A DNA stretch of 64,000 nucleotides, from NCBI GenBank assembly GCA_031289145.1, contig JAITQA010000146.1, forward strand, positions 14,072-78,071. Reading direction: 5' to 3'. A model generated the notes under the pieces. It saw only the letters and a program-made list of their open reading frames with translations. It made no database searches and was not told where the DNA came from. Numbering within the stretch: the first letter of the stretch is position 1; every line of letters begins with the position of its first letter. The translations under genes and the position numbers were made by a program. Positions 6,051 through 47,900 of the stretch are shown here, piece by piece. Source of the stretch: Dysgonamonadaceae bacterium. Its GTDB lineage: Bacteria > Bacteroidota > Bacteroidia > Bacteroidales > Azobacteroidaceae.

Positions 6051-6062
6051 AAACGATGTTAT

Positions 6063-8162: not shown

Positions 8163-8181
8163 GAGTAATAAATTTTAATGA

Positions 8182-11553: not shown

Positions 11554-11597
11554 AATTTTTTATTGTTATAATATTTATTTAGTAAACAAGACTTTTT

Positions 11598-11945
11598 TTA
11601 TTTGTCGGAAAGAAAATCAGCTCTCACAGGACTGAATGTATCAATCAGCACACCAGCCTCAAGACATACGCAACCATGCAAGACATCGGGTTCGACATAA
11701 TAACCGTCGCCCGGTTTCAAAATCAGCTTCTCATCACCGATGGTTAGTTCAAATACACCGGCAGCAACATAAGATGCCTGAGAATGATAATGTGCATGTA
11801 TTGAGCCGATGGCTCCTTTCTGAAACTCAACCTTGACCAACATCAGTTGGCCGTCATAAGCCATGACTTGTCGGCGGACGCCTTCGCCCGCCGGTTCCCA
11901 TGGTATTTCAGATGCGATCTGAAAAGTTTTACTTCGTGTTTTCAT
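11598..11945 (-). CDS. kdgF: Cupin, KdgF-like uronate ring-opening protein
   Basis: WEPAGEGVRRQVMAYDGQLMLVKVEF, HAHYHSQASYVAAGVFE, HGCVCLEAGVLIDTFSPVRADFL; pectin PUL context. Start moved to ATG 11945 (2 nt after the upstream stop). Confidence 0.8.
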   Translation of the reverse strand: MKTRSKTFQIASEIPWEPAGEGVRRQVMAYDGQLMLVKVEFQKGAIGSIHAHYHSQASYVAAGVFELTIGDEKLILKPGDGYYVEPDVLHGCVCLEAGVLIDTFSPVRADFLSDK

Positions 11946-11947
11946 AT

Positions 11948-13519
11948 TTACCACCATCTCGGATCTCCGGCAATGCCGATCAAATCCACATTAGAAAGGG
12001 TAAAATCACCGTTAGCAGCATCCTTAAATCCCGGATTGGCCTCTGTTGCAGCACATGTCGTTGCCGGAAAGGCCGCCGTCCACAAATTCTTACAATTGTA
12101 ATAATAATTTTTCGCAAAAACAGGTGTAATAGAAGCCAACAGATAATTGGCTTGGCGGATAAAATTACCGGAACCGGTATTTGCCACAGGGTCGGTTGTA
12201 GGACCTGTTTCCACCATGATACAATTACTTACGCTGAATGACGTGGATTTAGGCGCCCTGAAAAATCCGGTGTTATTGCTGTTATCAACCGTGCAAATCT
12301 TGTAGAATGTACAGTTTTTAACCGATACGGTAGCGTTGCCATTATCATTTTGAAGGCGAACGAAAGCACGGAAACTGTTGCTGAATGTAGAATTTTCAAT
12401 GGTCAATGAAGCAAGGGTTGAACCGGCACGAAAATCAATGCCATCTCCCCCACCCGCTCCCACGGGATTCATATTATTGAAGATGCAAGCTTTAATGGTA
12501 ATATCGCCAAAAACAGAAGCATTGCCATAAATAAAATGAGTAGCATAATCATGTATGTTACAATTGGTAACAGAAAGATCACCTAAGTTACATCCGGCTT
12601 TTGCTTCCAAGAAATTGCTACCTGTCGCTGCTCCATCAATATTCAAGTCTTTTAAAGAAAGTGAAGCTACTGTTACACTACAAACGAATCGTCCGCTGAT
12701 TATCGGCTTGTTGCTGGGCAAGTAGCCGGAAAGGCTAAGCGATTTAGTAAGTTCATACTCTCCAAGTGCATATTCACCGGGGAAGATAACAAAGGATGCG
12801 CCCTCTGCAGCAGCGTCCAAAATGGCTTTCAAATCATCTCCCGGATTGATTGCTACGGCTCCACCCAAATCAATCAGGGTGGTAAAAGTCACCGTTCCTC
12901 GCGTTTTCTGGCCGTTCATTAATTTGGCCGTATAGGCCGTTTCAGCGGTCAAACCGGTAATGACAGCTGCGCCTGCAGCTATTTCGGAAGCCGTTACGGC
13001 ATGGTTGATGTCGCCTGGCGTCAAGCGTATTTCGGTTGCCGTTTCTCCGGCAGGCCAACGCAAAGTAACTTGTGTTGCCTGAATTTCTTCAGGATCAACC
13101 GCTTTAAATATTTGTTCGGCGCCTGTTTTAAAAGTAACACTTGTCCATTTTGAGGGATTAATATCACTCCCAACGGCTTGTACCCGTACCGAATAATCCG
13201 TTTCACCTTCAAATCCGGGAACAGTATAAGGAACTTCCGCAAAACTCACTCCTGTGACGGATTTTACCGGCGATCCCGAAAAATCCTGATTCCCATTGGC
13301 AAAAAATTCTATATTGTAGCTTTTTGCTTTACTCGTTTCACCCCATGTGAGACGAACCGAAGTCTGATTCAGAATCCGCGCTTCCAAGTTCAAAGGCGAG
13401 AAAAGACGATCGGCATCAATAGAAGTCATAAGCGGATCAATATCATCGGAGCATCTTGTGCAGAAAGCGACCGCAACAATACTCAAAATAACTGCAATTT
13501 GTTTTATTAATTTATTCAT
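11948..13519 (-). CDS. Surface glycan-binding lipoprotein, FN3 domains plus beta-helix (DUF4957/DUF5123-like)
   Basis: Lipobox FCTRC-SDDID with acidic export signal; two FN3-like repeats (LTWGETSKAKSYNIE, ETDYSVRVQAV, ETAYTAKL); C-terminal NPGFKDAANGDFTL...AGDPRWW; follows susD. Confidence 0.8.
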   Translation of the reverse strand: MNKLIKQIAVILSIVAVAFCTRCSDDIDPLMTSIDADRLFSPLNLEARILNQTSVRLTWGETSKAKSYNIEFFANGNQDFSGSPVKSVTGVSFAEVPYTVPGFEGETDYSVRVQAVGSDINPSKWTSVTFKTGAEQIFKAVDPEEIQATQVTLRWPAGETATEIRLTPGDINHAVTASEIAAGAAVITGLTAETAYTAKLMNGQKTRGTVTFTTLIDLGGAVAINPGDDLKAILDAAAEGASFVIFPGEYALGEYELTKSLSLSGYLPSNKPIISGRFVCSVTVASLSLKDLNIDGAATGSNFLEAKAGCNLGDLSVTNCNIHDYATHFIYGNASVFGDITIKACIFNNMNPVGAGGGDGIDFRAGSTLASLTIENSTFSNSFRAFVRLQNDNGNATVSVKNCTFYKICTVDNSNNTGFFRAPKSTSFSVSNCIMVETGPTTDPVANTGSGNFIRQANYLLASITPVFAKNYYYNCKNLWTAAFPATTCAATEANPGFKDAANGDFTLSNVDLIGIAGDPRWW

Positions 13520-13534
13520 GGTTTCCTACTTTAA

Positions 13535-13562
13535 TAATTCATAATTCATAATTAATAATTAA
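13535..13562. repeat. Heptamer tandem repeat TAATT(C/A)A x4
   Basis: taattca taattca taattaa taattaa, read directly; overlaps the susD stop and fills the susD-SGBP spacer. Confidence 0.85.
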
Positions 13563-15352
13563 TTAGTTGGCGTACTATAACCATCATTATTCAACGATCC
13601 ATTGCTGGTATCCAAGAATATCTGCCAGATAGGCCAAAATTGTTGTGCATCCGGATTGCGAACGTACAAAGCATCCCAGTAGGTAACTCTATCATCGGAA
13701 GCCGATAATTTCCACGTTTTTTGAGATTCATAGCCCAAGGCTGTGCCTGCTGCATCCGTATCGCCGTGATTCAGGCCATAGATAAGCACATTTTCGCCCT
13801 CATTTTTGTAGTAAATATTCAGGGGCAGGTCTGCATATTCGCCTGTCCGGTTTTCGAGTCTTTGTAGTTTTTCTTTGGCCTCATTGAGTTTCGTTCCGAG
13901 CAGATTCCAGCGGATAAGGTCGCCTTTCCGCAACATTTCGCCTGTAAATTCGAGTGCACGTTCATCCACGATGGCATTGAAAAAAGTGGTTTTGCTTTGT
14001 GTTGCCTGCGCCATAAAAGCATTCACTTTTGCGGGATGATTCGGGAAAGCTCTGTCACGGATCATTTTCAGATAAGGCGCAGCGGCGGCGGGGCCATCAA
14101 GTTCGTTGATGGCTTCGGCTGCCATCAAGACAACATCGGCATAACGCATATACAGCCAGTTCAATCCGTCATCGTTGGTAGAAGTCACCAGGCGGGGCAA
14201 CCACTCGTAACGGTATTTACCAAAATACCATTTATTCAGATTGGTAGGCACCTGAACGCCATCCGTCCATTCATAAGGCACACAAGTTACATCACGGCGG
14301 GCATCATCCACATCATAAGCATAGTATATAATGGGATTAGGCCCGTTGGTACCGCCCTTGTTCTGTTGGGTATATTTATCGACAGTGGTATGCTTTACGC
14401 CTAAGTCAAAAATAACGCGGCCACGGCCTTCACTAAACGGAATTTCCCAAAGGGACTCCAAACCGGTCAGGCATTTTTCCTGACAGAGTGACTTGAATAC
14501 GTCTTCAAATGCTTGTAACTGGCAGGCGCCGCTATTGATAATATCCAAACATTCCTGTTTGGCAATGGCATACATTTTTTCCGGAGCCAAATCAGGGTCA
14601 TTACTGCGGCGTACTGTTCCGTCGGCACGTTGCGAATAACCTCCGGCAGCAAGCGCCAAGCGGGCGCGAAGGCCTTTCACAAAGGCTTTATTGATTCGTT
14701 CTGTGGATTGAGTTACGGTCGTTTCATTCGGCCATGCAACCAATCCGGAAGCCTCTTCCAAATCGGCAAGTAACTGTTTGTAAACCACATCACGATCGCT
14801 TTTCGGAAGATAAATGGTTTCCGTATTAATCGGCTCAAAACGGGCAGGCACATCGCCCCAAGCTTTCACTAAGTCGTTGTAAACAACCGCCCGAAGCGTA
14901 AGCATTTCTCCCAATATCTGGGCTAATTCTTTATTACTTTCGACATTTCCGTAGGTGCGTAATCCTCTGATAGCCAGATTGGCACGCTCGATACCTTCAT
15001 AAAATTTCGCCCACGCATTGTTGTCGGTATTCATTTGGCTATTGGAAACATTGGTGTTGTAATTTGCCAAACGAGATTTATCATCTGTTGTACTTTTCAA
15101 AGATATGATTACTTCACAGTCTGTATTGATGCCGTAATAAACCAAGTAACGTCCTCTATACGAGTTTGTTTCACAAAACGATTGAATTACGCCGGCAATA
15201 GCGCCTTCCGCCAAACTGGGTGTTGAGAAGATAACCGATTCATCCATGGTTGATTTTGTCGGTGCATCTAAATAATCATCGCAGGAAATTGTTGTTCCCA
15301 ACAAACAAGCGATTGCCATAAAGCTAAATATTATTTTTTTAATTGTTTGCAT
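13559..15352 (-). CDS. susD: SusD/RagB family lipoprotein (pair 1)
   Basis: Lipobox TTISC-DDYLD; GEMLTLRAVVYNDLVKAWGDVP, YMRYADVVLMAAEA, ERALEFTGEMLRKGDLIRW. Confidence 0.92.
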   Translation of the reverse strand: MQTIKKIIFSFMAIACLLGTTISCDDYLDAPTKSTMDESVIFSTPSLAEGAIAGVIQSFCETNSYRGRYLVYYGINTDCEVIISLKSTTDDKSRLANYNTNVSNSQMNTDNNAWAKFYEGIERANLAIRGLRTYGNVESNKELAQILGEMLTLRAVVYNDLVKAWGDVPARFEPINTETIYLPKSDRDVVYKQLLADLEEASGLVAWPNETTVTQSTERINKAFVKGLRARLALAAGGYSQRADGTVRRSNDPDLAPEKMYAIAKQECLDIINSGACQLQAFEDVFKSLCQEKCLTGLESLWEIPFSEGRGRVIFDLGVKHTTVDKYTQQNKGGTNGPNPIIYYAYDVDDARRDVTCVPYEWTDGVQVPTNLNKWYFGKYRYEWLPRLVTSTNDDGLNWLYMRYADVVLMAAEAINELDGPAAAAPYLKMIRDRAFPNHPAKVNAFMAQATQSKTTFFNAIVDERALEFTGEMLRKGDLIRWNLLGTKLNEAKEKLQRLENRTGEYADLPLNIYYKNEGENVLIYGLNHGDTDAAGTALGYESQKTWKLSASDDRVTYWDALYVRNPDAQQFWPIWQIFLDTSNGSLNNDGYSTPTN

Positions 15353-33382: not shown

Positions 33383-35412
33383 GCGAAGAAAAAGACAAGA
33401 ACAAAAACAATAAACCGGGAAACACGGGTCCTAACAACAATAAACCTTTCAAATTCAACATGGGTTGGATGTATGGTTTAATTATCCTCATGTTAATGGG
33501 CGTTTTTTTTACGAACACGAACTCCGGTTCCAATAAAGAATTAGGGTGGACGGAATTTAAAAAATACGCTGAAGAAAATTCCTTTAGCAAAATGGCTGTC
33601 AATCTGTCGGAAAGGAAAGTTGTGGCAACTATCAAGCCCGAACTTGTTCCGGCCATTCTGGGTGCAACCACGGATACTTTCGCCATTAAAAATCCGTTTA
33701 AAAAAAGTGGAGAGGCTACCGTAACCGTCATTATCCCTTCTGTGGACAAATTTACCGATTACTACAACAATTTGGTGGTAAGCAAAGAAATAGACGCTAC
33801 CATCAGTTACAACGAAGGCAATAGCTTGCTATGGACTATTGTGATACAGGTGTTACCCATTGTAATCATTGTTTTTATATGGATTTACCTGTTTCGACGA
33901 ATGTCGGGCGGAGGCTCCGGCGGGCCGTTCGGCGTCGGCAAGACGAAAGCCCAGTTGTACGACAAATCATCTACACAATCCAAAAAGGTAACCTTCAAGG
34001 ATGTAGCCGGCTTGTCCGAAGCCAAACAGGAGGTGGAAGAAATTGTTGATTTTCTCAAAAATCCTGCAAAATATACCGACTTGGGCGCGAAAATTCCCAA
34101 AGGGGCGCTTTTGGTAGGCCCTCCGGGAACGGGGAAAACGCTGTTGGCTAAAGCCGTAGCCGGCGAGGCCGACGTTCCTTTCTTTTCGCTTTCCGGTTCG
34201 GATTTTGTAGAGATGTTTGTGGGAGTAGGCGCTTCCCGTGTACGTGATTTGTTCCGTCAGGCGAAAGAAAAAGCGCCTTGTATTGTCTTTATTGATGAAA
34301 TTGATGCGGTAGGACGCGCCAGAGGAAGAAATCCGAGCATGGGCGCTAACGATGAAAGAGAAAATACATTGAACCAGTTGTTGACCGAAATGGACGGATT
34401 CGGCTCAAACAGCGGAGTCATCATATTGGCCGCCACCAACAGGGTGGATATTTTGGACAAAGCTTTGTTGCGCGCCGGACGGTTCGACCGGCAAATCAAT
34501 GTGGATTTACCGGAACTGAACGACCGGAAAGAGATTTTCTTAGTGCATCTGCGGGATATCAAAATAGATGAATCGGTAGACACTGAGTTTATGGCTCGCC
34601 AAACACCGGGATTTTCGGGAGCTGATATTGCCAATGTATGTAACGAAGCGGCATTGATTGCGGCACGTAACGGCAAGGAATTTGTGCAAAAAGATGACTT
34701 TATGAATGCCGTAGACCGGATTGTGGGCGGTTTGGAAAAAAAATCAAAAGTAACAACCGTAGAAGAACGCCGAACAATCGCTATCCACGAAGGCGGTCAT
34801 GCGACACTCAGTTGGATGTTGGAATATGCCAATCCTTTGGTAAAAGTGACCATCGTCCCCCGCGGAAAAGCATTAGGCGCTGCCTGGTATATGCCGGAAG
34901 AAAGGCAAATTACTACATATCAACAACTTCAGGACGAAATGTGCGCTACTTTAGGTGGACGGGCTGCTGAAGAATTGGTTTTGGGCAGGATTTCCACCGG
35001 GGCCTACAACGACTTGGAAAGGGTTACCAAACAGGCTTATGCCATGGTGGTTTACTACGGAATGAGTAATCTCTTGCCGAATCTGAACTATTACGACGCC
35101 AGCGGGCAAGACTGGGGATTCACAAAACCTTATAGTGACGAGACCGCAACACTGATAGATTCGGAAGTCAAACGCATCATAAACGAACAATATGCCCGAG
35201 CGCGGGCAATTCTGACCGAATGTAGTGTTCAACACCTGGCTTTGGCGGAGCTATTGCTTGAAAAAGAAGTTATTTACGCCGACGATTTGGAAAAAATATT
35301 CGGCAAACGGAAATGGCTTTCCCGTTCTCAAGAAATATTAGCCCAACAGGGACTGACCGACCAGGAAGAGACCGCTGTAGAAAAAACAGTAGATTCTGAG
35401 AAAGAAAAGTAG
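33379..35412 (+). CDS. ftsH: ATP-dependent zinc metalloprotease FtsH
   Basis: Two TM helices, [51 protein letters not shown] zinc site; start ATG 33379 overlaps the rsfS stop. Confidence 0.97.
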
Positions 35413-35425
35413 TAATGAAGCTGAA

Positions 35426-36256
35426 ATGAAGAATTTCTTTGCAAGATTATTCACGGGTACTATTTACGTAGCATTTATATGTTGCGGAATAATGGTGAAT
35501 GCTTATACATTTTTCGCTCTTTTCTCTATTGTTATACTGCTGTGTTTATGGGAGTTTTACGGATTGGTAAACGCACAAAAAAGGACAAGGATAAACCCTT
35601 GGTATAATTGTTTCGGAGGGTTTGTACTTTTCTTGAGTACTTTTCTGTATGCTTCGGGCGTTTTCGATTATTTCATCTTTTTTATCTACCTGTTTTACCT
35701 CGTAATCCTGTATGTATCGGAATTGTATGAAAAACAGCAAGACCCGATTACACACATGGCTTATATCTTTTTGGGTCAGTGCTATATAGCTTTACCGGTA
35801 TCTGTGCTGAATCTGATTGCATTTTCAGGCATAGTCGACGGTACGCCTGTTTATAATCCGCTTTTAATCACTTCTTTATTTATTTTTATCTGGGCAAACG
35901 ACACCGGCGCCTACCTGATAGGAATTTTAATCGGTAAACACAAGCTTTTTGAACGCATTTCTCCCAAAAAATCATGGGAAGGCTTTTTTGGGGGCTTACT
36001 GTTTACCCTTGCCGCCTCTTTGGTTTTCGCCTGTTTCGACAAGGAAATTCCCTGGTATCACTGGACCGGTTTATCCTTGGGAGTTGTAATTTTCGGCACC
36101 TGGGGCGACTTGATTGAATCCCTGATAAAACGGACTTTGGAAGTGAAAGACTCCGGACAGGCCTTGCCCGGCCACGGGGGATTTTTAGACCGTTTCGACA
36201 GTCTGCTTCTGGCTGTTTATGCCATGCTTTTCTATGTGCAGTTGTTTTTTGTCTGA
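35426..36256 (+). CDS. cdsA: Phosphatidate cytidylyltransferase
   Basis: WANDTGAY, RISPKKSWEG, KDSGQALPGHGGFLDRFDS. Confidence 0.95.
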   Translation: MKNFFARLFTGTIYVAFICCGIMVNAYTFFALFSIVILLCLWEFYGLVNAQKRTRINPWYNCFGGFVLFLSTFLYASGVFDYFIFFIYLFYLVILYVSELYEKQQDPITHMAYIFLGQCYIALPVSVLNLIAFSGIVDGTPVYNPLLITSLFIFIWANDTGAYLIGILIGKHKLFERISPKKSWEGFFGGLLFTLAASLVFACFDKEIPWYHWTGLSLGVVIFGTWGDLIESLIKRTLEVKDSGQALPGHGGFLDRFDSLLLAVYAMLFYVQLFFV

Positions 36257-36552
36257 TAAATATGCTTACAGTGGCGTAAAAAAATAAGCCTGTCCGTTAA
36301 TAAAGTACCGTCCGCGCAGGACTGCAAGAAGATGGGAAACTTTAGACAATTTATTTCGTAAAATAATAGCACCTCAAAAAAAAATTAGCCAAATTTATTC
36401 CGTTTTGTCTTTATCTCAAAATATTGTATTAAATTTGTATTCAAATGAAAATAATTAGCGCTCATGGTATAAATAATAAAAAAACATAGTAAAAATGCAG
36501 ATATTTAGATAGGTAGTTAAATAAATATTATCTTGTATCTTTCTTCCTTGAA

Positions 36553-36684
36553 GTTTGACGATTTTGGGACACTGAAAGAAATAAGTATGACGTTCACGTT
36601 TAAGGCGTGGACTTAACTTATTTGCTGTGTCAGGTTTCGTCAAACACCTAAGGAAGCGGGTATTTTAAGTATCACGCTTTTTTT
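36553..36684 (+). promoter_or_regulatory. Structured leader: 9-bp inverted repeat, short uORF and terminator-like hairpin
   Basis: GTTTGACGA 36553-36561 pairs with TCGTCAAAC 36637-36645; uORF MTFTFKAWT* 36587-36616; hairpin AAGCG-GGTATT/AGTATC-A-CGCTT 36654-36679 followed by a T run; TAAATTTG promoter box at 36430-36437. Confidence 0.5.
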
Positions 36685-36721
36685 ATTGATATATGGCAGA
36701 AATATAAAAACAATTGATCAC

Positions 36722-37099
36722 ATGGAAAATAGCGAATTGCTCCGGCATATATTCCAATTAGAATCTAAACTATTTAAAAAGACAGAAATATTCCAAATAA
36801 TTGAGTTGAAAGCAGAAAAAAAATGCTTGATTGAAAACGAGCGACAACAATTACGCATGGAAATCCAGTCTGTTTTTATAAATTTTATTCAAACAATCAA
36901 GATAAATTGTCCGGAGATAACAGATGAAGATATTATATTTTGTTGCTTGGTAAAGACCGGATTAAATACTTCCGTCATTTCCTGTTGCATGGGAAATGCA
37001 GACAATAAAGCAGCAAATCAAAGAAAATACCGCATTAAAAAAAAGATTATGAAAGCAAAATGCGATTCTCTTTTCGACCAAATTTTCAATTGCACTTAA
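36722..37099 (+). CDS. Stand-alone LuxR-like C-terminal HTH protein
   Basis: CPEITDEDIIFCCLVKTGL...AANQRKYRIKKK resembles the C-terminal HTH module of Bacteroidota TPR/LuxR-type regulators; no sensor domain; ATG 36722 preferred over TTG 36686. Confidence 0.6.
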   Translation: MENSELLRHIFQLESKLFKKTEIFQIIELKAEKKCLIENERQQLRMEIQSVFINFIQTIKINCPEITDEDIIFCCLVKTGLNTSVISCCMGNADNKAANQRKYRIKKKIMKAKCDSLFDQIFNCT

Positions 37100-39357
37100 T
37101 CCTTTTTCTTTTCTTGTGCAATGATTTCGATAGCTTTTTCCAATACCTCGTCGCGTCCTTCCCGAATCCCCTTAATGGTCGGATTCACTTCAATATCCGG
37201 GATAATACCTACCCTTTGTGTTTCTCTGCCATCGGGATAATAAACGCCAATGCCGGAAATACTTGTACTTAATCCGCCGGGAAGCGTTATTTCGGAAACA
37301 TTTCCATCTGCACCGGCGGTTGTACTGCCAATAACGGTGGTATTATCGCCTGCTTGAAATGCCATTGCAGTATATTCGGATTGACTTATTGTAAATTCAT
37401 TCACAAGTACCACTAATTTTCCCCGGTAAGTTTCTTCCGGCTTAGGAATTTCGAGGTCTTGTGTAAAAGTAAATTCACCCGGATTATTCGCATTCCCTCG
37501 TGTAAATTTAACAAAAGGAGTGGGCGCTGATACAAAATAAGAACCTAAGCTAAACGGAACGAAAGTAGCCGGATAATTGCGAATGTCAATGATAATTCCC
37601 TTAGTATTCTTAAATTCTTTTTTGATAATTGGAATATCTGCATTTTTAATAGATTCCAAGGTAATATAACCGATATTTTCGTTTAAAAATTTATAACATT
37701 TAGCGTAATTCTTTTTATACCGAATCAATTTTCGGTTATATAAGCAAGTCAGTTCTTTCTCTTCTTTTCGTTTGGAATTAGAAGATATATAATTGATATG
37801 AATCCTGTCGCTGTTCGAGCGCAGTAGGTCATTGGCAATATTTCTCATTCTTGCTGCCTCATTTGATGCCGGATAATATTTTTTGATACTGTCAACAATA
37901 GACTCAACGGGTTGTGTATTAATATGGGTAATAATGTCGCCGATTTCCAATCCGGTTTTTTTTCGTATTTTAGCATAGCTATGGACAATTCCTTCAACTT
38001 GGCGATAATCTTTTACGACCCATTTGTTTTCAATCCATTGGAGTTGAACGGGAACCCGCTTGTTTCCTCTTAAAGAATCTATTTTATCATCGCCGTTTTC
38101 CAGGCCGGCATGTGTATCACAGACTGCTCCTATCAGTTGTGTAACAGCGAATTCATATTCCAATTCGTTTTTTGCCGCAATAAATAGCGGGATATATTCT
38201 TTCAAAACCGTATTCCAATCTTTATCTGTCTGATATTTATAGGGGAAAAAATAGTGAATCATGTTCCAATACCGATAAAGCGCCAATAAGCGGAATCCGG
38301 CATCGGGATAAGGCATTTCGGGGTAGTCATTTTCGTGCAGAAACATTGGATTCCCGACATAAGCTGCCGAATGTATATAATAATGGCTACCTTGCTGTCT
38401 GTTCAAATAAATGTTTTGCAATAAAGCCCTTAACTTTCGGTTCATCGTACTATTGTCTATCCAGGATAAATCAGGTTTTAAAAAAGCGCTGTCAGGCGTT
38501 GCCGTACAGGTTTTACAGGCAGGAACATTTCCGTATTTCTTAATCCAATTCAAAAGTATCCTGTCCCGTCGGTTTGTATCATTTATTTTTAAATAATCGG
38601 GAAGTATCCGGAACAGTTCGTAATCCCAATTGTATTTTCCAGCTGCAATTGCCGGGTGATGATATTTTAAAAATCCCCAGATTCTTCCCAATAATTCCAA
38701 ATCAGAAATCTTTTGTTCATCAAGTTCCGGAAAAACAATCTTAGAGCCGGAGTCAAATTTTTTATCTTTTTCGGCAGGTAAAACTTTCGGTTTATAGGGT
38801 TTTAGATTTTGTATATCTTTATCATCAATCGTTATTTTCAAATCGTCTATCCACATTTTGCCTTTCCCGGATAAATGACCTCCCACTACAATTTTTTCTG
38901 TTATGGCAGGATATAAATCCGCCCTTATCTCAAATTTTTTCCATTCGTTTGTGCCTGTCAGCTTCTCCTGCTCCATGTCATTATATGCAACAGAAGGAAG
39001 TATTGCCATCCATAATCCGGCATAACCTTCCGTCACATTTTCGGTTTTAATATATCCGGATAGGGTAATTTGCTTTCCGCCATAATCATGAGGAAGCGTG
39101 AATGCTAAACTATTATCAATCAGCATATTTCCTTTTGATTCGATGACAACAGCGTATTTTCCGCTTTTGACTTCTATTGAATCCAAAGAGATCGTATTGA
39201 TTAAACCATTGTCACTTATTTTCCATCCGACGGGGAATCCATTGTCAATTTTTTCAAAATCCAAGTTAAACTTGCTGTCGGAATCCTTATTTTGGCGACA
39301 AGCTACTAATAAAATCGTTATAACAATGATTGTGAAAATTAAATGCTTTGTCTTCAT
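37096..39357 (-). CDS. S41 family peptidase lipoprotein (N-terminal accessory domain, PDZ-like domain, S41 catalytic domain)
   Basis: Lipobox LLVAC; LGRIWGFLKYHHP, RLLALYRYWNMIHYFFPYK, PDZ-like LEIGDIITHIN, IIDIRNYP, TISQSEY (catalytic Ser motif), TAGADGN, GIIPDIEV; convergent with the HTH gene, stops sharing TTAA. Confidence 0.9.
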   Translation of the reverse strand: MKTKHLIFTIIVITILLVACRQNKDSDSKFNLDFEKIDNGFPVGWKISDNGLINTISLDSIEVKSGKYAVVIESKGNMLIDNSLAFTLPHDYGGKQITLSGYIKTENVTEGYAGLWMAILPSVAYNDMEQEKLTGTNEWKKFEIRADLYPAITEKIVVGGHLSGKGKMWIDDLKITIDDKDIQNLKPYKPKVLPAEKDKKFDSGSKIVFPELDEQKISDLELLGRIWGFLKYHHPAIAAGKYNWDYELFRILPDYLKINDTNRRDRILLNWIKKYGNVPACKTCTATPDSAFLKPDLSWIDNSTMNRKLRALLQNIYLNRQQGSHYYIHSAAYVGNPMFLHENDYPEMPYPDAGFRLLALYRYWNMIHYFFPYKYQTDKDWNTVLKEYIPLFIAAKNELEYEFAVTQLIGAVCDTHAGLENGDDKIDSLRGNKRVPVQLQWIENKWVVKDYRQVEGIVHSYAKIRKKTGLEIGDIITHINTQPVESIVDSIKKYYPASNEAARMRNIANDLLRSNSDRIHINYISSNSKRKEEKELTCLYNRKLIRYKKNYAKCYKFLNENIGYITLESIKNADIPIIKKEFKNTKGIIIDIRNYPATFVPFSLGSYFVSAPTPFVKFTRGNANNPGEFTFTQDLEIPKPEETYRGKLVVLVNEFTISQSEYTAMAFQAGDNTTVIGSTTAGADGNVSEITLPGGLSTSISGIGVYYPDGRETQRVGIIPDIEVNPTIKGIREGRDEVLEKAIEIIAQEKKKD

Positions 39358-39388
39358 AATTGCTTTTTTTTACCATTGAATCAGGTTG

Positions 39389-39532
39389 CAAATATAAGCA
39401 ATAAATGATATAAAATCCAATGCTAAACAAAATTGTTATTGCGTAAAATGTAACCAACTGATTATTAATGTCGGGAAACGTATTATTGTTATTAAAAATA
39501 TTTGGAACTTTGTTTTTTAGCAACTAATTTTG
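39389..39532. promoter_or_regulatory. Divergent promoters for the S41 gene and the lan operon
   Basis: Plus strand: TTTG 39501-39504, 20 nt, TAATTTTG 39525-39532 (consensus spacing). Minus strand: TATATTTG (plus CAAATATA 39389-39396). Confidence 0.6.
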
Positions 39533-39564
39533 TCAACAGGAATGAAAACAGTAAAATTTTCAAT

Positions 39565-40749
39565 ATGGACACCGTCATCAAACAAAAAATTGACTCAATA
39601 GCCAATTGTATTGTAGACAAAGTTTACGCGCAACAGGCCGGAGAATCCTACGGATTATATTCCGGAGAGTGGGGAATATTATTGTTTTTGTTTTATTATT
39701 CAAAGTATTCCGAAAATAAGCAGTATGCTGAATTGGCTGAGTCTTTTGCAGAAACATTATTTGCTCAATTTCCTGAAAAACTCGAATCCCATACTTTTTG
39801 CAATGGTCTTTCCGGCGTTTTATATTTGTTTGAATTTTTGCGTGAAAATCAGTTTATAGATATAAGCGCCGGTCAATCGAATGTAAATGATTATCTTGTT
39901 TTCAAAATGCGGCAGGATATCAGACAACAACATTATGATTTCATGCATGGCGCTTTGGGTGTAGGTTTGTATTTTCTGAAAAAGAAAACCAATACGAAAT
40001 ATGTACAAGAATTAGTCGATTTTTTATACAACACGGCAGAAAAAGATACAGATAATCAAATATTTAAGTGGAAATCTGTCATTGATATAAAAGAAAATAT
40101 TACAGGGTATAATATAGCGCTATCTCATGGAATTTCCAGTATTATTATTTTTTTATCACGGGTCATTAAAAGCGATATGACAGATAAAAAAGTCCATGAG
40201 ATGTTGGTTGGCGCTGTAAATTATGTTTTATCACAGCAACTTGATGTTTTACAATTTGGGGCAAACTTTCCTCAGTGCTCTGTTGAAGGAAACAACTTTC
40301 CTATTAAAAAAAGTCGATTGGCCTGGTGCTACGGTGACTTAGGGATAGGAATCGCATTGTGGCAAGCAGGAAAAGCAATTAATAAAATAGAATGGGGAAA
40401 TAAAGGATTAGCAGTTCTACTTCAAACTACTCAGCGTTTGTCTTTACCTGAAACTTATGTACAAGAGGCCGGAATTTGCCATGGAAGCGCCGGAATAGCG
40501 ATGATATATTATCGTATGTTTCTCGAAACGCAACGAGATGAATTTAACAAAACTACTCAATACTGGATGAAACAAACGTTAAATTTTGCGCAATTTGAAG
40601 ATGGATTAGCCGGATATAAGGCATTGACCGAAGATGGGTGGAAATGTAATTATTCGCTACTGACAGGTATATCCGGTATCGGACTTGTATTAATGTCTTT
40701 TGTTGCAAATACTCAACAAAAGTGGGATGAATTATTTTTATTGTTATAA
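39565..40749 (+). CDS. lanC: Lanthionine cyclase LanC
   Basis: YNIALSHG (catalytic His), KSRLAWCYGDLG (Arg and Zn-Cys), GICHGSAG (Zn Cys-His), DFMHGALG, LLTGISGIGL; ATG 39565 lies just downstream of the promoter. Confidence 0.93.
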   Translation: MDTVIKQKIDSIANCIVDKVYAQQAGESYGLYSGEWGILLFLFYYSKYSENKQYAELAESFAETLFAQFPEKLESHTFCNGLSGVLYLFEFLRENQFIDISAGQSNVNDYLVFKMRQDIRQQHYDFMHGALGVGLYFLKKKTNTKYVQELVDFLYNTAEKDTDNQIFKWKSVIDIKENITGYNIALSHGISSIIIFLSRVIKSDMTDKKVHEMLVGAVNYVLSQQLDVLQFGANFPQCSVEGNNFPIKKSRLAWCYGDLGIGIALWQAGKAINKIEWGNKGLAVLLQTTQRLSLPETYVQEAGICHGSAGIAMIYYRMFLETQRDEFNKTTQYWMKQTLNFAQFEDGLAGYKALTEDGWKCNYSLLTGISGIGLVLMSFVANTQQKWDELFLLL

Positions 40750-40804
40750 ATAAAAAAATAGAGAGTTAGTTAAAAATTTATGTATCATTTAAATTCAATT
40801 TAAA

Positions 40805-41050
40805 ATGAAAAAATTATCATTAAAAAAAGAGGTAATTATGAACCTCGATGAAACTGAAATGAAGAATGTAAAAGGAGGAACAGGAACAGGAACAGCAGTA
40901 CCCGGAACATTGGTATCTCAGTGTCCTGCTTTATGTTATTCTACGTTTTGCACAAATTTGGTTCCTAAAACATGCGAGGGTAGTGGTAGTGCCCTTTGTT
41001 CAGGAGCTACTTCACAGATACGTTGCGCGCCTGTTGCTGTTTTACCATAA
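40805..41050 (+). CDS. lanA: Class I lanthipeptide precursor (25-aa double-Gly leader plus 56-aa core)
   Basis: MKKLSLKKEVIMNLDETEMKNVKGG / TGTGTAVPGTLVSQCPALCYSTFCTNLVPKTCEGSGSALCSGATSQIRCAPVAVLP; 6 Cys, 8 Thr and 6 Ser in the core, none of the Cys in the leader; lies between lanC and lanB. Confidence 0.92.
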   Translation: MKKLSLKKEVIMNLDETEMKNVKGGTGTGTAVPGTLVSQCPALCYSTFCTNLVPKTCEGSGSALCSGATSQIRCAPVAVLP

Positions 41051-41148
41051 GACAAAATGTTATTCTAAAAAATCTTAAATATATATATTGGGATATGAAT
41101 CATAACCTGTATAAAAATTTATAGCGTTTTAGTAATAATTTATTGTAT

Positions 41149-43329
41149 ATGTATAATCCTTTTAATGAGTTTCTTATACGTACACCGTTGCTGCATTTTA
41201 ATTATTTGAATAAAAATAAATTAGAAACAGCATTGTTAAATCAACAGGTTCAAGAGGCTATTTACATAGCCTCTCCTGTTTTATATGTCGAATTACAAAA
41301 ATATTTGAATGGGGAAGTCAACAATGAAAATGAAAAGAAGCGGATAGAATTTGCATTGTATAGATATATCAGTCGAATGTCTTCTCGCTGTACGCCTTTC
41401 GGACTATTTGCCGGATGCTCGGTTGGCACTATTACAGCGGATAAAACCTGTGTTATAGTGGAACATTTTAATCGACATACCAGATTGGATATGTTCTTTT
41501 TATGCACGCTTGTTCAAGAATTGGCAAAACAGCCTGACATTAAAGACGCCTTGCACTATTATCCAAACACTACCCTGTATCAAATAGGCAATAAATACCG
41601 GTATATTGAATATCAATATAGCAATTCACAGCGCATACATCGGATAACTTCCATCGAACGTTCCTTTTACTTAGATGCTATTCTGAAAATGGCAAAAAAA
41701 GGGGTAAAACCGAATAAATTATCTTCATATTTAATTGATAATAAAATAGATAAAGAAAATTTGCTTGATTTTATACAAGAATTAATTGATTCGCAAATTC
41801 TCGTTAGCGAAATAAGCCCTTCCGTTACAGGAGAAGATTTTTTCACAAAAATAATTGCTGTTTTGGAAAAATCACATGCCAATGAAAGCAGAATAGCAAC
41901 TCTCAAAGAAATCCAAGACTCCATCTGCCAATTAGATTCAAACCAAATCAATGCTATAAAGCTATATCAGGACATTATAAGAAAAATTGAAAAAATTAAA
42001 GCGCCGTACGAAGAAAAATTTTTGTTTCAGGTGGATATAACGAGAAACGTAAGAGAAGCCACAATCGAAAAAAGAGTTACGAATGAACTTCAATCGGCAA
42101 TGTCTTTTTTGAATAGAATTACCCCAAACGGAAAGAATGAAACACTAAGTCAATTCCAACAATCTTTTTATAATCGTTATGAAGATCGTGAAGTGTTATT
42201 GATGGAGGCGTTAGATCCGGAAATTGGTATCGGATACCCTGTTAATACAAATACCGGAGATGTTGCGCCTTTATTGGCTGATTTTCATATTCCCAAGCTA
42301 TCAAGTAAAATTTCTAATTTCCAGCGGGATGCTTTTCAATCTGTTTTATTCAAGAAAACGATGGAAGCGTTAGCTCAGCATAAAAGTGAAATTATTTTTA
42401 CCGATGAAGACGTCAAAAAATTTCATTCGAATTGGGCTGATTTGCCATCCACGATGTATTCGATATTTAGTATTGTAAAAGCTGATTCCGAGACATTATT
42501 GATCAAAACAAATGGTTTTTATGGAACTTGTGGCGCGAATTTATATGCTCGTTTTGCTCATACAGATAAAAAAATTGCACAATTTGTAAGTGAAATCACA
42601 AAGAAAGAACAAGAACTAATGCCGGAAAGCATTTTGGCGGAAATAGCGCATTTGCCTGACTCAAGGATTGGGAATATTTTGTCCCGCCCACATCTTCGTG
42701 ATTATGAAATTCTGTACTTGGCTAATTCGGATATGCCCGATAACTGCTTAATCTACATGTCGGACTTATCTATCTCTATTCGACAGGGAAAAATTAATTT
42801 ACGTTCAAAAAAATTAAACAAAGAAATTATTCCTCGATTAACTAACGCACATAATTATCACAATAATACAATGCCTGTTTACCAATTTCTCTGTGACATG
42901 CAAGATCAAAACGGAAGAGGTGGTTTGGTTTTTAATTGGGGCTACTTGGGCAATGAATTAAACTTTTTACCGCGTGTCAAATATAAAAATACTATCATTT
43001 CTTTGGCTACATGGAGCGTTAAAATAGAAGAAATGAAGCATTTATTTTCAATACAAGCAGAAGATGAATTACTATTAGAAACAAGACGGTGGCGCGAAAA
43101 CTTATCTCTTCCACAAAAAGTTTTATTACCGGATGGGGACAAAGAACTGTTTGTTGATTGGGAAAATGAACTAAGTATTCAATCTCTGTTTTCAATAATT
43201 AAAAACCGACAAATGGTATCTTTTAAAGAATTTTTATTCGAACCTGAAAATTCTGTGGTTAGAGACAAAAATGGCGATTCTTATGTAAATGAATGTATTG
43301 CTGCTTTTTATAGAAATAAAGAAAAATGA
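41149..43329 (+). CDS. lanB: LanB dehydratase, glutamylation domain (split LanB N-part)
   Basis: AIYIASP, YISRMSSRCTPFGLFAG, YQIGNKYRY, ARFAH, NILSRPHLRDYEI, IPRLTNAHN, LPRVKY...LATW, LPDGDKELFVD; ATG 41149 preferred over TTG 41143. Confidence 0.92.
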   Translation: MYNPFNEFLIRTPLLHFNYLNKNKLETALLNQQVQEAIYIASPVLYVELQKYLNGEVNNENEKKRIEFALYRYISRMSSRCTPFGLFAGCSVGTITADKTCVIVEHFNRHTRLDMFFLCTLVQELAKQPDIKDALHYYPNTTLYQIGNKYRYIEYQYSNSQRIHRITSIERSFYLDAILKMAKKGVKPNKLSSYLIDNKIDKENLLDFIQELIDSQILVSEISPSVTGEDFFTKIIAVLEKSHANESRIATLKEIQDSICQLDSNQINAIKLYQDIIRKIEKIKAPYEEKFLFQVDITRNVREATIEKRVTNELQSAMSFLNRITPNGKNETLSQFQQSFYNRYEDREVLLMEALDPEIGIGYPVNTNTGDVAPLLADFHIPKLSSKISNFQRDAFQSVLFKKTMEALAQHKSEIIFTDEDVKKFHSNWADLPSTMYSIFSIVKADSETLLIKTNGFYGTCGANLYARFAHTDKKIAQFVSEITKKEQELMPESILAEIAHLPDSRIGNILSRPHLRDYEILYLANSDMPDNCLIYMSDLSISIRQGKINLRSKKLNKEIIPRLTNAHNYHNNTMPVYQFLCDMQDQNGRGGLVFNWGYLGNELNFLPRVKYKNTIISLATWSVKIEEMKHLFSIQAEDELLLETRRWRENLSLPQKVLLPDGDKELFVDWENELSIQSLFSIIKNRQMVSFKEFLFEPENSVVRDKNGDSYVNECIAAFYRNKEK

Positions 43330-44198
43330 AACCCATTCAACGAACTTACATGCCGGGAAGCACCTGGATTTATATCAAATTGTACGTTGGTATCAAAACG
43401 GCCGATGATTTGTTAATTAAAGTGATAGCCCCGATTATAAGAGAATTACAGCGGAAACAAGCTATTGAAAAATGGTTTTTCATCCGGTATTCAGACCCTG
43501 ATTTTCATTTAAGAATCAGATTATTGGTGACCGATTTCATTTATATTGGAGAAATAATCTGTTTGTTCCAAAAAAAACTTGTTTATTGGAACAAAAATAA
43601 CCTTCTGTGGAAGATGCAGTTAGACTCTTACAACAGAGAATTGGAACGTTATGGGAAAAACCTGATTGAAGAAGCAGAATCTGTTTTTTATGCCGATAGT
43701 GAATGTGTCCTTTCAATTATTAGAAAATTAGGAAACAACGAGAAATATCGATGGATGATTGCTTTAAAATTGATTGATAGTTTATTATCTGATTTTCATT
43801 TAAGTATGGAAGAAAAACAAAAATTGATGGAAAACTTAAGCAAATTATTCAAAACCGAATTTGGATTTAACGAATATAACGCTAAATCTTTTAATACTAA
43901 ATTTAGGGAAAACAAAATGATTGTAGAATCCACATTAAATAATATAATTGACGAAAAAGAATTTAATTTTTTATACAGTCCTATAAGAAAGCGTACTAAA
44001 CAGTTGGTATCAATTGTAGGAAAAATCAATAAAAATAAATTGAAGCATATTAATTTGAATGAATTACTAAGCAGCTATCTCCACATGATGCTTAACCGCC
44101 TTTTTCGCTCAAAAAACCGGATACATGAACTAATTTTATACGATTTCATGCGTAGATATTATGCCGGCGAAATGGCCAAATTAAAATATAATAAATAG
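43326..44198 (+). CDS. LanB elimination domain (Lant_dehydr_C / thiopeptide-type biosynthesis domain), split LanB C-part
   Basis: WIYIKLY, WFFIRYSDPDFHLRIR, YNRELERYG, SYLHMMLNR; ATGA overlap with the upstream gene. Confidence 0.9.
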   Translation: MKPIQRTYMPGSTWIYIKLYVGIKTADDLLIKVIAPIIRELQRKQAIEKWFFIRYSDPDFHLRIRLLVTDFIYIGEIICLFQKKLVYWNKNNLLWKMQLDSYNRELERYGKNLIEEAESVFYADSECVLSIIRKLGNNEKYRWMIALKLIDSLLSDFHLSMEEKQKLMENLSKLFKTEFGFNEYNAKSFNTKFRENKMIVESTLNNIIDEKEFNFLYSPIRKRTKQLVSIVGKINKNKLKHINLNELLSSYLHMMLNRLFRSKNRIHELILYDFMRRYYAGEMAKLKYNK

Positions 44199-44339
44199 TA
44201 TCTTACAATGATGCCTTTAAAAAATTGCAACAGTTCAAAACGATACTATCGCCATCAACTATATTAAATAATAATATTTCTTTTATACGCTTTTGCCATT
44301 TTCTCCGTTATTATTAATGTATTTAATATATTGAGTAAC

Positions 44340-44927
44340 ATGTTAGACTACATCAAGGGAGAAATTGTTGAATTGACTCCGGCTTCGGTTGTGATTGAAG
44401 TCGGCGGTTTGGGTTATATCGCACATATTTCCTTAAATACTTATAGTGCACTCAACGGATTAAAATCATGCAGACTATATGTATATGAGGCTATTCGGGA
44501 AGATGCACACCAATTGTTCGGATTTTTGGAAAAACGTGAAAGGGAGTTATTCCTGCACCTGATATCCGTTTCCGGGGTCGGCGCCAATACGGCCCGTATG
44601 GTTTTATCTTCTATCGCTACCTATGAATTAGAAAGCATTATCTCCTCCGGAAACGCGAATGCCCTGAAAACAGTAAAAGGTATTGGCGGCAAAACGGCTG
44701 AAAGAATCATTATTGATTTGAAAGACAAGGTAAAAATCAGTGGGGAATCCGCTACGTCTTCCGCCGCAGCCAATCCGGCAAACGAAGCGGCCAAAGAAGC
44801 TGTATCTGCACTTACTATGCTCGGATTTAACCAATTAGCTTCGCAGAAGATAATAGATAAGATATATAAAATAAATCCGGCGCTCAGTGTGGAGGATTTT
44901 ATTAAACAGGCGCTAAAAATGCTTTGA
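44340..44927 (+). CDS. ruvA: Holliday junction branch migration protein RuvA
   Basis: [59 protein letters not shown]. Confidence 0.96.
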
Positions 44928-47900
44928 TGAAGCCTTGTAAAAAATACATATTAATTGGGTTGAGTATTCTTTTTGCCGGTAGTTTTTACGGGTCGAATGT
45001 GCATTTATCTTCATCCGGTTTGGAATTTCCGGCAGTTACGTTTGCACCGGAATCTTTCGCGATCGCTCCCGAAGACAGCCTTAAACCTCTTTTTCCGGTC
45101 GAAAAGATTGTCCCTGAAAATTACAAAGAATTGATCCAAAGCCATCCGATAGATTTACGAACACCGGAAACATTCAATTCCGGATTTCAATACAACCCAT
45201 TAAGCAACAGGTATGAACTCAGGTCTAAAATCGGAGATTCCGACCTCATAACACCTATTTCGCTCACGCCTGAAGAATATTACAAATACAGTCTGCAAAA
45301 GAGTATGAGTGCTTATTACAGAGAAAAATATGCGGAAGAATTTCTAAGTGCGGACAGTGCAAAGAAAAAGGACGTTTTATCTATTTTCGATTTTAATTTT
45401 GATTTGGGACCTGCCGATAAAATATTCGGTCCGGGAGGCGTAAAAGTAAATGCCCAGGGAAATATCATTACTAAAATGGGATTTACCCATACTTCGACCG
45501 GAAATCCGACTTTGACGGAAAAACAAAGAAGCCGCACAGCTTTCGATTTCGACGCGCAAATCCAAGCGAGCTTTGCCGCTTCGGTAGGTGATAAAATCAA
45601 CTTTGACCTGAACTATAACACAGAATCGACCATGTCTTTCGACACGAAAAAGATTAAATTAGCCTATCAGGGGAAAGAAGATGAGGTTTTAAAAGTGTTG
45701 GAAGCAGGTAACGTAAGCATGAATACCACGAACTCGTTGATCCGGGGTGGAAATGCCTTGTTTGGTATCAAAACGGAAATGCAATTCGGCAAACTCACTG
45801 TCGGCGCCATATTTTCCCAACAGGAATCGCAATCACGTTCGGTCTCTTCCAAAGGGAATGTGCAAACAACACCTTTTGAGATAACTGTGGATATGTACGA
45901 CGAAAATATGCACTATTTCCTGTCACATTATTTTTATGATCATTACGATGATGCAATGAGTTCTCTACCTTATATCAGGTCAGGAATCAACATAGACCGT
46001 ATCGAGGTTTGGATAACCAACAGACGTTCAGACTATAATGAGGCCCGTAACATCATTGCTTTTACTGATTTGGGCGAAAACCAACATATCAGCACTCCCG
46101 GTTTTATTCATCCGTCCGGTTCGGAAGCGGTTCCCTATAACAAGGCCAATGACCTGTACGCTAATCTTATCAATAATTACCCCGGCGCCAGAAACATCAG
46201 TCAGGCAAACCAGGTTTTGGGAAGCACGCCGCTTGAAGGCGGCCGTGATTATGAGAAAATTGAAAACGCCCGAAAATTAGGAAGTTCCGAATATTCATTC
46301 GATCCGCAACTGGGTTATATTTCCTTGCGGAATCCGTTACAGCCCGACGAAGTGCTGGCCGTATCCTTTAGCTATACCTATAACGGCACAACTTATCAGG
46401 TAGGTGAATTTTCGACCGATAATCCGAACAGTACCACGGATAATTTATATGTGAAACTGATCAAAGGTACAATGAGTTCGCCTGCTTCCGCAACATGGAA
46501 GCTGATAATGAAAAATATTTATACCATTACGAACAGTTATATTGACCAGGATAAATTCCGGCTGAATATTAAATACCAGAACGATACAACCGGTGTTTTT
46601 CTCAATTATATCACGGAAGGCGATATTGCCAATCAACTTTTGCTGCGCGTCATGAATCTGGATAACCTGGATGCACGACAAAATCCTTATTCCGATGGAT
46701 ATTTCGACTTTATTGAGGGCAAAACGATTTACGCGCAATCCGGGAAAATCGTATTCCCCGTAACAGAACCCTTCGGTTCGCATTTGAGAAAGAAAATAGG
46801 AAATGACGCCATCGCCGACAAATATGTCTTTCAGGAATTATACGACTCCACTTTGACCGTCGCCCGCCAGATTGCTGAACAGAATAAATTCATACTGCAA
46901 GGAGAATACAAAGGTTCCGGAGATGCCGCTATCGGATTAAGCGGAAGTAATATTGCCAAAGGATCGGTAGTCGTTATGGCAAACGGCGTCAGGCTAAAAG
47001 AAAATATAGACTATATTGTAGATTATGCCGGTGGAGGCGTGACTGTTATTAATCCGCTTTACAAGGATGCGGATTTGAACATTCAGTCCGAAGACCAATC
47101 TGCGTATGGAATAGGGCTGCAACGCAAAACCATGATGGGATTGAATCTGAATTATGCTTTCAATCCTAATTTCAACATAGGGGCTACCGTCATGAACTTG
47201 AGCGAAATGCCAACTACTATGAAAACTTTGCCGGGGCAGGAATCCGTTAACAATACCTTGTTTGGCTTCAACACCAATTACGCAACGCAATCGCAAGCCT
47301 TGACCAATTTTTTGGACAAACTGCCTTTCCTGGATCTAACCGCCCCGTCGCAGATCACTTTCAATGCCGAATATGCACAGTTGATTCCCGGTCACTACCA
47401 TAGCAAATACGGAGGAGATTATTCCTATATTGATGATTTTGAGCAAGCTAAAACACCTATCGACCTCCGCTCTCCTTATTCATGGAATTTAGCGTCCACA
47501 CCCTCCATGTTTACCGAATCACGCTTAGTGAACAATATTGATTATGGGAAAAATCGCTCGCTGTTGGCGTGGTATTACATTGATGGTTTGTTCACCCGAA
47601 AATCTTCTTTAGCGCCGAATCATATCAAAAATGACTTTGACCAATTGTCTAATCATTATGTGAGGGAAATATCGGAAGCCGAACTTTTCCCAAATAAAGA
47701 CCAACGTTACAATGAATCGGCTATGCTTCCGGTCTTGAACCTGGCATACTATCCTTTGGATCGAGGGCCGTATAACCTGGATGTTATCGGTATGGGAACC
47801 AACGGGAAACTGTTAAATCCGGAGAAACGTTGGGGGGGAATTACCCGGAGAATCGAAAGCGGATACACCGATTTTGAAGCCAACAATTTTGAAACCATTG

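Follow-up and report, generated by a model that had tools for sequence, protein, structure and literature searches.

Class I lanthipeptide clusters in which the LanB dehydratase is split into two proteins are known from Bacteroidota, among them the pinensin clusters of Chitinophaga pinensis (family I_17), as described before (Walker et al. 2020, PMC7268733). The same authors remarked that the LanCs of the pinensin family resemble the class II LanM cyclase, gave LxLxKx5L...GG as the leader motif of Bacteroidetes class I LanAs, and catalogued uncharacterized Bacteroidota class I clusters with such leaders in large numbers, with thousands of comparable precursors (PMC7268733). The class I LanB/LanC systems of Pedobacter lusitanus NL19 (PedA15.x) and Runella limosa (LanI-101) likewise have a leader ending in GG, and GG leaders of Bacteroidota can be removed by the C39 peptidase domain LahT150 (PMC12328550; PMC9576775). 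A BAGEL4 survey described Bacteroidales as entirely without LanB (PMC10352776).

Here, we analyzed a 64-kb stretch of DNA (64,000 nucleotides, referred to as the window) from a metagenome-assembled termite gut genome whose nearest relatives are Dysgonomonadaceae. Like the pinensin clusters, the locus studied is of Bacteroidota origin and has a split LanB and a LanM-like cyclase. It differs from them in (i) a core peptide without detectable similarity to any database protein searched, (ii) its host, an anaerobic gut symbiont of the Bacteroidales, and (iii) the presence of an S41 peptidase and the absence of a transporter in cis. The hosts of PedA15.x and LanI-101 belong to the Sphingobacteriales and Cytophagales, and their cores are unrelated to the one described here. 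As judged from its sequence, the locus is probably a functional class I lanthipeptide gene set, and we place at about 80% the probability that it is a genuine, probably functional and probably horizontally acquired lanthipeptide island between cdsA and ruvA of a termite gut Bacteroidales bacterium.

The cluster proper consists of lanC, lanA, lanB-N, and lanB-C at positions 39565 to 44198 of the window. ORF coordinates and domain matches agree with an earlier note on this DNA that the four genes are co-oriented, all of them lying on the plus strand. The Bacteroidota consensus promoter that the note had placed ahead of the gene set was found in complete form, TTTG-N20-TAATTTTG, on the plus strand at 39501..39532, 33 nt 5' of the lanC ATG; 5 matches to this motif were observed in the window versus 1.64 expected by chance. 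The four genes may be co-transcribed from this single promoter, and no terminator-like site was found 3' of lanB-C. For comparison, we used related loci from Dysgonomonas spp. (L001, L003, and L004), the metagenome-assembled genome Fux382_bin49 (L002), and Bacteroidia PG1894_155 (L063 and L099), among others.

Strong domain matches and conserved catalytic residues bear out the view that these are class I lanthipeptide enzymes with a split LanB. The gene lanB-N (41149..43329, plus strand; 726 aa) encodes the glutamyl-tRNA-dependent glutamylation domain (PF04738, E value of 2.5e-152), and lanB-C (43326..44198, plus strand; 290 aa) encodes the glutamate elimination (lyase) domain (PF14028, E value of 4.2e-65; TIGR03891, E value of 2.5e-61), both Pfam profiles being matched over their whole length. 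The two domains indeed reside on separate genes that overlap by 4 nt, lanB-C beginning at 43326 and lanB-N running to 43329; for lanB-N, a TTG at 41143 is an alternative to the ATG start at 41149. The glutamylation domain, which contains the SRCTPFGLFAG stretch reported before, aligns with the solved LanBs 9g04 (E value of 1.5e-46), MibB, and NisB, and carries the motifs SRMSSRCTPFG (Arg/Arg/Thr) and TRLDM (Asp). Residues R63, R65, E105, R108, and H253 of lanB-C do not vary among 14 clade members; R108 is located in ELERYG, which corresponds to ERYG in the alignment with MibB and 9g04. An Arg equivalent to NisB Arg826 marks anti-eliminating lyases, whereas syn-lyases have a hydrophobic residue at this site (Sarksian et al. 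2022, PMC9486935). By this Arg, the one located of two markers (the other being Tyr versus Lys), lanB-C would fall into the anti-eliminating group, and with R108 retained the rings are predicted to be of the DL type, formed from (Z)-Dhb.

The lanC gene (39565..40749, plus strand) encodes a predicted Zn-dependent lanthionine cyclase of 394 aa (PF05147, E value of 2.4e-44). Its start is preferably the ATG at 39565, which is supported by agreement with the L002 orthologue, and less likely the upstream TTG at 39502. The His, Arg, and Zn-binding motifs ascribed to the protein were all identified, namely, LSHG (His188), SRLAWCYG (Arg251, Trp254, and Cys255), and CHG (Cys305 and His306). No variation was seen among 8 clade members at D125, H188, W254, C255, C305, and H306, and R251 is present, so that the Zn ligands C255, C305, and H306, the active-site H188, and D125 of a stand-alone LanC are all found. 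Its best NCBIfam match, TIGR03897, is the LanM cyclase domain. Every residue checked in LanC, lanB-N, and lanB-C is in place, and the catalytic parts can be regarded as intact, as had been proposed.

The residues correspond to those of the nisin enzymes of Lactococcus lactis: equivalents of Arg83/Arg87/Thr89/Asp121 and Arg784/Arg786/Glu823/Arg826/His961 of NisB and of Asp141/His212/Cys284/Cys330/His331 of NisC are present (numbering of NisB and NisC, in part from PMC9486935). The same chemistry is expected. The LanA leader would recruit the split dehydratase, LanB-N would esterify glutamate from Glu-tRNA(Glu) onto Ser and Thr residues of the core, and LanB-C would remove it by anti elimination to yield Dha and Dhb, after which the Zn-dependent LanC could join the six Cys thiols into up to six (methyl)lanthionine rings. 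The locus differs from that of nisin in its split LanB, a leader of the GG rather than the FNLD/NisP type, its Gram-negative host, and the absence of lanP, lanFEG, lanI, and lanRK. That the product is instead another RiPP made by a split LanB, for instance one resembling a thiopeptide or a peptide that is only dehydrated, is suggested by the fact that thiopeptide pathways typically have split LanB pairs (PMC7268733) and by the best NCBIfam match of lanB-C, TIGR03891, which is named thiopeptide-type bacteriocin biosynthesis. We consider this highly improbable: the operon includes a LanC whose Zn ligands and active-site His are all in place, the leader fits the class I lanthipeptide leader model, and neither a YcaO/cyclodehydratase nor a dehydrogenase nor a second lyase/[4+2] enzyme is encoded in the island. 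A thiopeptide reading of the TIGR03891 match was rejected because LanC is present and azole- and pyridine-forming enzymes are absent.

The precursor that a lanthipeptide pathway needs adjoins the LanB and LanC genes. The lanA gene (40805-41050, plus strand) encodes 81 aa with a recognizable leader and a Cys- and Ser/Thr-rich core, and matches NCBIfam model NF038153, class I lanthipeptide leader, with an E value of 2.7e-8. The 25-aa leader, MKKLSLKKEVIMNLDETEMKNVKGG (40805..40879, plus strand), fits the LxLxKx5L...GG motif; the core, TGTGTAVPGTLVSQCPALCYSTFCTNLVPKTCEGSGSALCSGATSQIRCAPVAVLP (40880..41050, plus strand), comprises 56 aa plus the stop codon and contains 6 Cys (positions 15, 19, 24, 32, 40, and 49) and 14 Ser/Thr residues. 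Seven related loci have kept this leader while their cores differ, and a constant leader combined with varying cores is the usual RiPP pattern. In the 56-aa core, we found no SxxxCTP(G/S)C, the lipid II-binding motif in the N-terminal core of nisin-like lantibiotics (PMC7268733).

Two claims had been made on this core, namely, that it is unlike any known lanthipeptide and that it is unusually long. The former is supported by both database searches. Among 5.8 billion proteins searched by word index, the query itself was the only match, and exhaustive HMMER scanning of 1.84 billion representatives revealed no core relative. The non-self matches of the latter were a 62-aa LanA aligned through its leader only (E value of 9e-4) and a repeat protein matching residues 30 to 45 of LanA, which was dismissed as spurious; at an E value of 1e-3, the leader-only match was the sole other precursor in the scan. 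The latter claim stands in part. Next to characterized class I peptides, the 56-aa core is unusually long, and pinensin is far shorter than this 6-Cys core. The cores of its own clade, in contrast, are hypervariable, with 41 to 71 aa and 3 to 8 Cys, and the notion that a long 6-Cys core is exceptional there was rejected. On the evidence of sequence, then, the core matches nothing known, whereas machinery, leader, and gene layout are of a well-described Bacteroidota type. The locus adds a sequence-unique six-Cys putative lanthipeptide from Bacteroidales and leaves the known picture of lanthipeptide biosynthesis unchanged, because earlier work has described enzymes of this kind, LanB splitting, and leaders of this type.

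The four genes form part of a larger low-GC island (~36.3 to 44.3 kb) between cdsA and ruvA, with a G+C content of 33 to 36% as opposed to 39 to 47% in the flanks. The island also holds two genes that recur in related clusters. At its left end is a small conserved ORF (36686..37099, plus strand; 137 aa) that has no Pfam domain up to an E value of 10 and, in NCBIfam, weakly matches the BT3442 family in its C-terminal part; homologues are located at the head of the lan cluster of L002 (52% identity) and beside LanC in L099 (54%), and the protein is possibly a regulator. It is followed by a gene for an S41 family serine peptidase (37096..39357, minus strand; PF03572, E value of 1.7e-20, plus a Bacteroidetes S41 N-terminal domain), divergent from lanC and with an N terminus ending in ...LLVAC, a predicted lipoprotein. 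The G+C content falls by ~10 points over the island and the genome is a metagenome assembly of 169 contigs, so that one might suspect an assembly or binning artefact in which foreign low-GC DNA was misjoined. This is scarcely credible, since positions 35289 to 47000, from cdsA through the island to ruvA and sprA, lie on one independent Logan contig obtained from the source run, whose depth is uniform at 26.7 and equals that of neighboring contigs. In addition, a run from a second study contains S41 pieces, the same flanks, and lanB fragments with 0 to 1 differences, and the closest homologues of the cluster come from the same family. The low G+C content, together with the patchy occurrence of LanB, makes horizontal acquisition of the genuine island probable. 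Neither a tRNA nor another known RNA was found at the edge of the island. Among 30 genomes of the same genus, no empty cdsA-ruvA site could be defined because the DNA upstream of ruvA varies from species to species, although ruvA-sprA synteny is kept.

A double-glycine leader has GG at positions -2/-1 and hydrophobic residues at -4, -7, -12, and -15. The LanA leader conforms to this rule for PCAT-type exporters, with Val at -4, Met at -7, Leu at -12, and Ile at -15, next to Glu at -8; the rule is partly backed by PMC12328550. Such a leader calls for a C39 peptidase ABC exporter, but none was found between cdsA and ruvA, nor were genes for a leader peptidase or for immunity detected in cis. In L001, L002, and L089, a PCAT gene (lanT) directly follows lanB-C, whereas here ruvA follows after 132 nt. 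The locus may therefore be a silent remnant in which the modification genes are intact, the dedicated PCAT has been lost, no mature peptide is released, and decay is under way. Loci of this kind do decay in the source genome, as seen from a truncated PCAT on contig C99 (a 417-aa frame without ATPase domain) that lies beside a homologue of the small ORF (36% identity), and none of the RNA runs searched holds the locus. We nevertheless regard a silent remnant as unlikely, given that none of the four ORFs is shortened and none of the catalytic residues has been lost, the consensus promoter is retained, and the lanB fragments of the second sample are nearly identical. Furthermore, a C39 domain search of the genome gave 10 matches, at least 5 of them in full-length PCAT frames that could process this textbook GG leader; one genomic PCAT is 75% identical to the LanT of L001. 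In a functional pathway, the leader would be cut off during export by such a C39 peptidase ABC transporter encoded elsewhere.

The same cluster layout recurs in Dysgonomonadaceae and further Bacteroidales relatives, with LanB-N identities of 35 to 66%. The closest clusters (L001 to L004, L063, and L099) have the same gene set, with 50 to 66% identity for LanB-N and 30 to 66% for LanC, and a near-identical leader (MKKLxLKKExxxxLxxxEMNxxKGG), and several of them hold the S41 and small ORF genes. They differ in that each has a core of its own and in that some have retained the PCAT gene; gene order also varies, the S41 gene of L002 lying between lanC and lanA. S41 homologues were found within or beside the lan genes of L002, L004, L063, L066, L089, L099, and L104, and the linkage recurs in 8 clusters across Bacteroidales and one Flavobacteriales. 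It is not mentioned in the lanthipeptide surveys consulted, including PMC7268733 and PMC10352776. The S41 family as such is not lan specific, since ~54 of 59 homologues from other species have no lan genes nearby, and the paralogue on contig C129 of the source genome is likewise not RiPP linked.

Acting outside the cytoplasm, the predicted S41 lipoprotein might trim the peptide or protect the producer. These data permit a broader and tentative proposal, which we consider possible but well short of probable, that the locus represents the first lanthipeptide pathway of a distinct Bacteroidales subfamily of termite and gut symbionts, in which long, hypervariable, polycyclic cores of 41 to 71 aa are matured in two compartments, by LanB and LanC in the cytoplasm and by a dedicated S41 lipoprotein outside, with export via a shared pool of PCATs. 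If so, the peptidase would act on the core, trimming either its Gly/Thr-rich N-terminal stretch or the C-terminal tail that lacks Cys, or would confer NSR-like self-protection; the precursors linked to S41 genes were inspected for a shared C-terminal motif, and none was found. The cluster offers an entry point to the role of this recurrent peptidase and is a candidate for heterologous production, for which it is relevant that expression of class I clusters in E. coli is often unsuccessful unless the native tRNA(Glu)/GluRS is supplied (PMC9576775). LanB was detected in 9 of 61 related genomes and occurs twice in the source genome, which contains a second class I cluster, and the survey statement on Bacteroidales therefore fails for termite gut and Dysgonomonas-like lineages.

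The four lan genes of the window lie on the forward strand. The lanC gene (39565-40749, with its ATG at 39565) encodes 394 amino acids that match Pfam family LANC_like (E value, 2.4e-44); lanA (40805-41050) is an 81-amino-acid ORF matching the NCBIfam class I lanthipeptide leader model NF038153 (2.7e-8); lanB-N (41149-43329; 726 amino acids), for glutamylation, covers the whole Lant_dehydr_N profile (2.5e-152); and lanB-C (43326-44198; 290 amino acids), for elimination, matches Lant_dehydr_C (4.2e-65). By their coordinates, the 726- and 290-amino-acid ORFs overlap by 4 nucleotides. The Bacteroidota promoter motif TTTG-N20-TAATTTTG is present in full at 39501-39532 on the same strand, 33 nucleotides upstream of the lanC ATG; there were 5 matches to this motif in the 64-kb window, with 1.64 expected. 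Since ORFs, domain matches, and promoter motif were all found as described, the earlier note was right in every detail checked in observing a four-gene cluster behind a consensus Bacteroidota promoter.

The proteins were compared with LanC and LanB proteins of solved structure and in alignments across the clade of related lan clusters. (i) LanC contains D125, H188, R251, W254-C255, and C305-H306, the counterparts of the NisC acid/base residues and zinc ligands; except for R251, these residues (six in all) are invariant in 8 clade members. (ii) LanB-N retains SRMSSRCTPFG, with its two Arg and Thr, and the Asp of TRLDM. (iii) In LanB-C, R63, R65, E105, R108, and H253 are retained and do not vary among 14 clade members. 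R108 is the equivalent of NisB Arg826, a position that separates anti- from syn-eliminating lyases (Sarksian et al., PMC9486935), and on this basis LanB-C is predicted to be an ordinary anti-type lyase. All residues examined in the three proteins are thus retained, consistent with the proposal that the catalytic parts are intact, and together with the domain matches and the leader motif they support the interpretation as a class I lanthipeptide cluster with split LanB.

The lanA leader is hydrophobic at positions -4, -7, -12, and -15, as is typical of double-glycine leaders cleaved by C39 peptidase transporters. Its sequence, MKKLSLKKEVIMNLDETEMKNVKGG, fits exactly the motif LxLxKx5L...GG of Bacteroidetes class I LanAs (Walker et al., PMC7268733). 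The 56-residue core has Cys at positions 15, 19, 24, 32, 40, and 49 and 14 Ser/Thr; because Ser/Thr are found N-terminal to each Cys, up to six rings would be possible. The lipid II motif characteristic of the nisin type was not found in this core. In a word-index search covering 5.8 billion proteins, the query was the sole hit; scanning 1.84 billion representatives exhaustively with HMMER yielded, in addition, just a leader-only match and a spurious repeat protein. Judged by these searches, which gave no core relative, the core is new, in agreement with the earlier view that it resembles no characterized lanthipeptide. Novelty is confined to the peptide, the biosynthetic logic being already known and like that of the Bacteroidota class I pathways of the pinensin, Pedobacter, and Runella type. 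Seven related clusters have this leader too, with unrelated cores of 41 to 71 amino acids that contain 3 to 8 Cys. The 6 Cys of the precursor described earlier are confirmed, but the length of the core is ordinary within the clade.

One of these seven is a second class I cluster in the source genome, spanning contigs C40 (1-5084) and C135 (241-2553) (loci L016/L027 and L058). Its LanA2 has the same leader, and its 67-amino-acid core contains 7 Cys and an acidic tail; the identities of LanB-N2, LanB-C2, and LanC2 are 60%, 59%, and 60%. LanC2 is followed by a further LanC-like ORF in which the zinc ligand motifs are apparently altered (CWTYG; CHG is absent). LanB-N homologues were found in 9 of 61 related genomes, namely, the source genome, 4 of 36 from the same genus, and 4 of 24 from other families of the order. 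The window cluster is thus one of a family. LanB has been reported to be absent from Bacteroidales (PMC10352776), a statement that the nine genomes and the second cluster contradict for these lineages.

At the sequence level, all features that define class I lanthipeptide clusters with a split, anti-type LanB were present; the one feature lacking was a C39-peptidase ABC transporter (PCAT) in cis. A PCAT gene directly follows lanB-C in three related loci: L001 (from a Dysgonomonas sp.), L002 (from a Dysgonamonadaceae MAG), and L089. In the window, ruvA begins 132 nucleotides past lanB-C with no PCAT between, and LanP, LanFEG, and LanI were likewise not found in cis. This absence of a PCAT in cis is the chief reason for giving weight to the alternative that the cluster is a silent remnant that no longer yields an exported peptide, which we consider improbable. 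A C39 domain search of the source genome gave 10 matches, at least 5 of them within full-length PCAT frames. The PCAT on contig C152, 75% identical to the LanT (the lan cluster PCAT) of L001, adjoins an HlyD-like gene, lies near a gene for another GG-leader Cys-rich peptide, and is a candidate trans exporter of the window's peptide; export in trans is plausible.

The C152 region (~4500-14100, partly covered by L010) is a further GG-leader locus, encoding the Cys-rich peptide MKKISLKRVSEILSDKELKNVLGG..., a 476-amino-acid thioredoxin-like protein, and a 1,229-amino-acid protein of which one stretch weakly resembles LanC (PF05147; E value, 2.7e-5). On contig C99 (526-2407; L009), a 36% homologue of the small ORF at 36686-37099 adjoins a PCAT frame that ends at ~417 amino acids and is devoid of the ATPase domain; the pair looks like what remains of a comparable locus after decay.

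The G+C content is 33 to 36% at ~36.3 to 44.3 kb, between cdsA and ruvA, versus 39 to 47% outside. The source is a termite-gut metagenome. An assembly artifact is ruled out, since 35289-47000 is covered by an independent contig from the source run whose depth is 26.7 throughout and a run from another study contains the flanks, the S41 peptidase gene, and lanB fragments with 0 to 1 differences. In 29 same-genus genomes (L029-L057), ruvA-sprA synteny is kept, and a species-dependent thioredoxin-like lipoprotein gene, AAA-ATPase-like protein gene, or ORF-less low-GC DNA lies 5' of ruvA; because this DNA differs between species, the position looks like a variable spot. No empty cdsA-ruvA site was definable in same-genus genomes.

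The unit extends beyond the four lan genes, as the island also holds an S41 peptidase gene with a lipoprotein signal (37096-39357, reverse strand, divergent from the lan genes) and a 137-amino-acid ORF (36686-37099, forward strand) in which domain searches gave no recognizable domain. In L002, the closest cluster (66% LanB-N identity), the order is small ORF, lanC, S41, lanA, lanB-N, lanB-C, and PCAT. S41 homologues are likewise neighbors of lan genes in L004, L063, L066, L089, L099, and L104. The S41 family is common across Bacteroidota, and ~54 of 59 loci, as well as a paralogue on contig C129, are without lan linkage. Because it is widespread and mostly unlinked yet recurs beside lan genes, it looks like a housekeeping-type peptidase repeatedly recruited to lan clusters, where it may act in peptide trimming or producer protection. 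This linkage is the sole aspect of the cluster that might reward more study. At 37096-37099, the S41 gene and the small ORF converge, with overlapping stop codons and their final 4 nucleotides in common, and there is therefore no space for an intervening terminator. Between cdsA and the small ORF lies a short repeated element (36296-36382; an 88-nucleotide stretch with a 37-nucleotide core at 36346-36382) that matched no tRNA or Rfam family; 13 further copies (12 on other contigs and one on C18) are 76 to 92% identical, and the surrounding bin (36170-36603) has an ~10-fold excess depth from source-run contigs.
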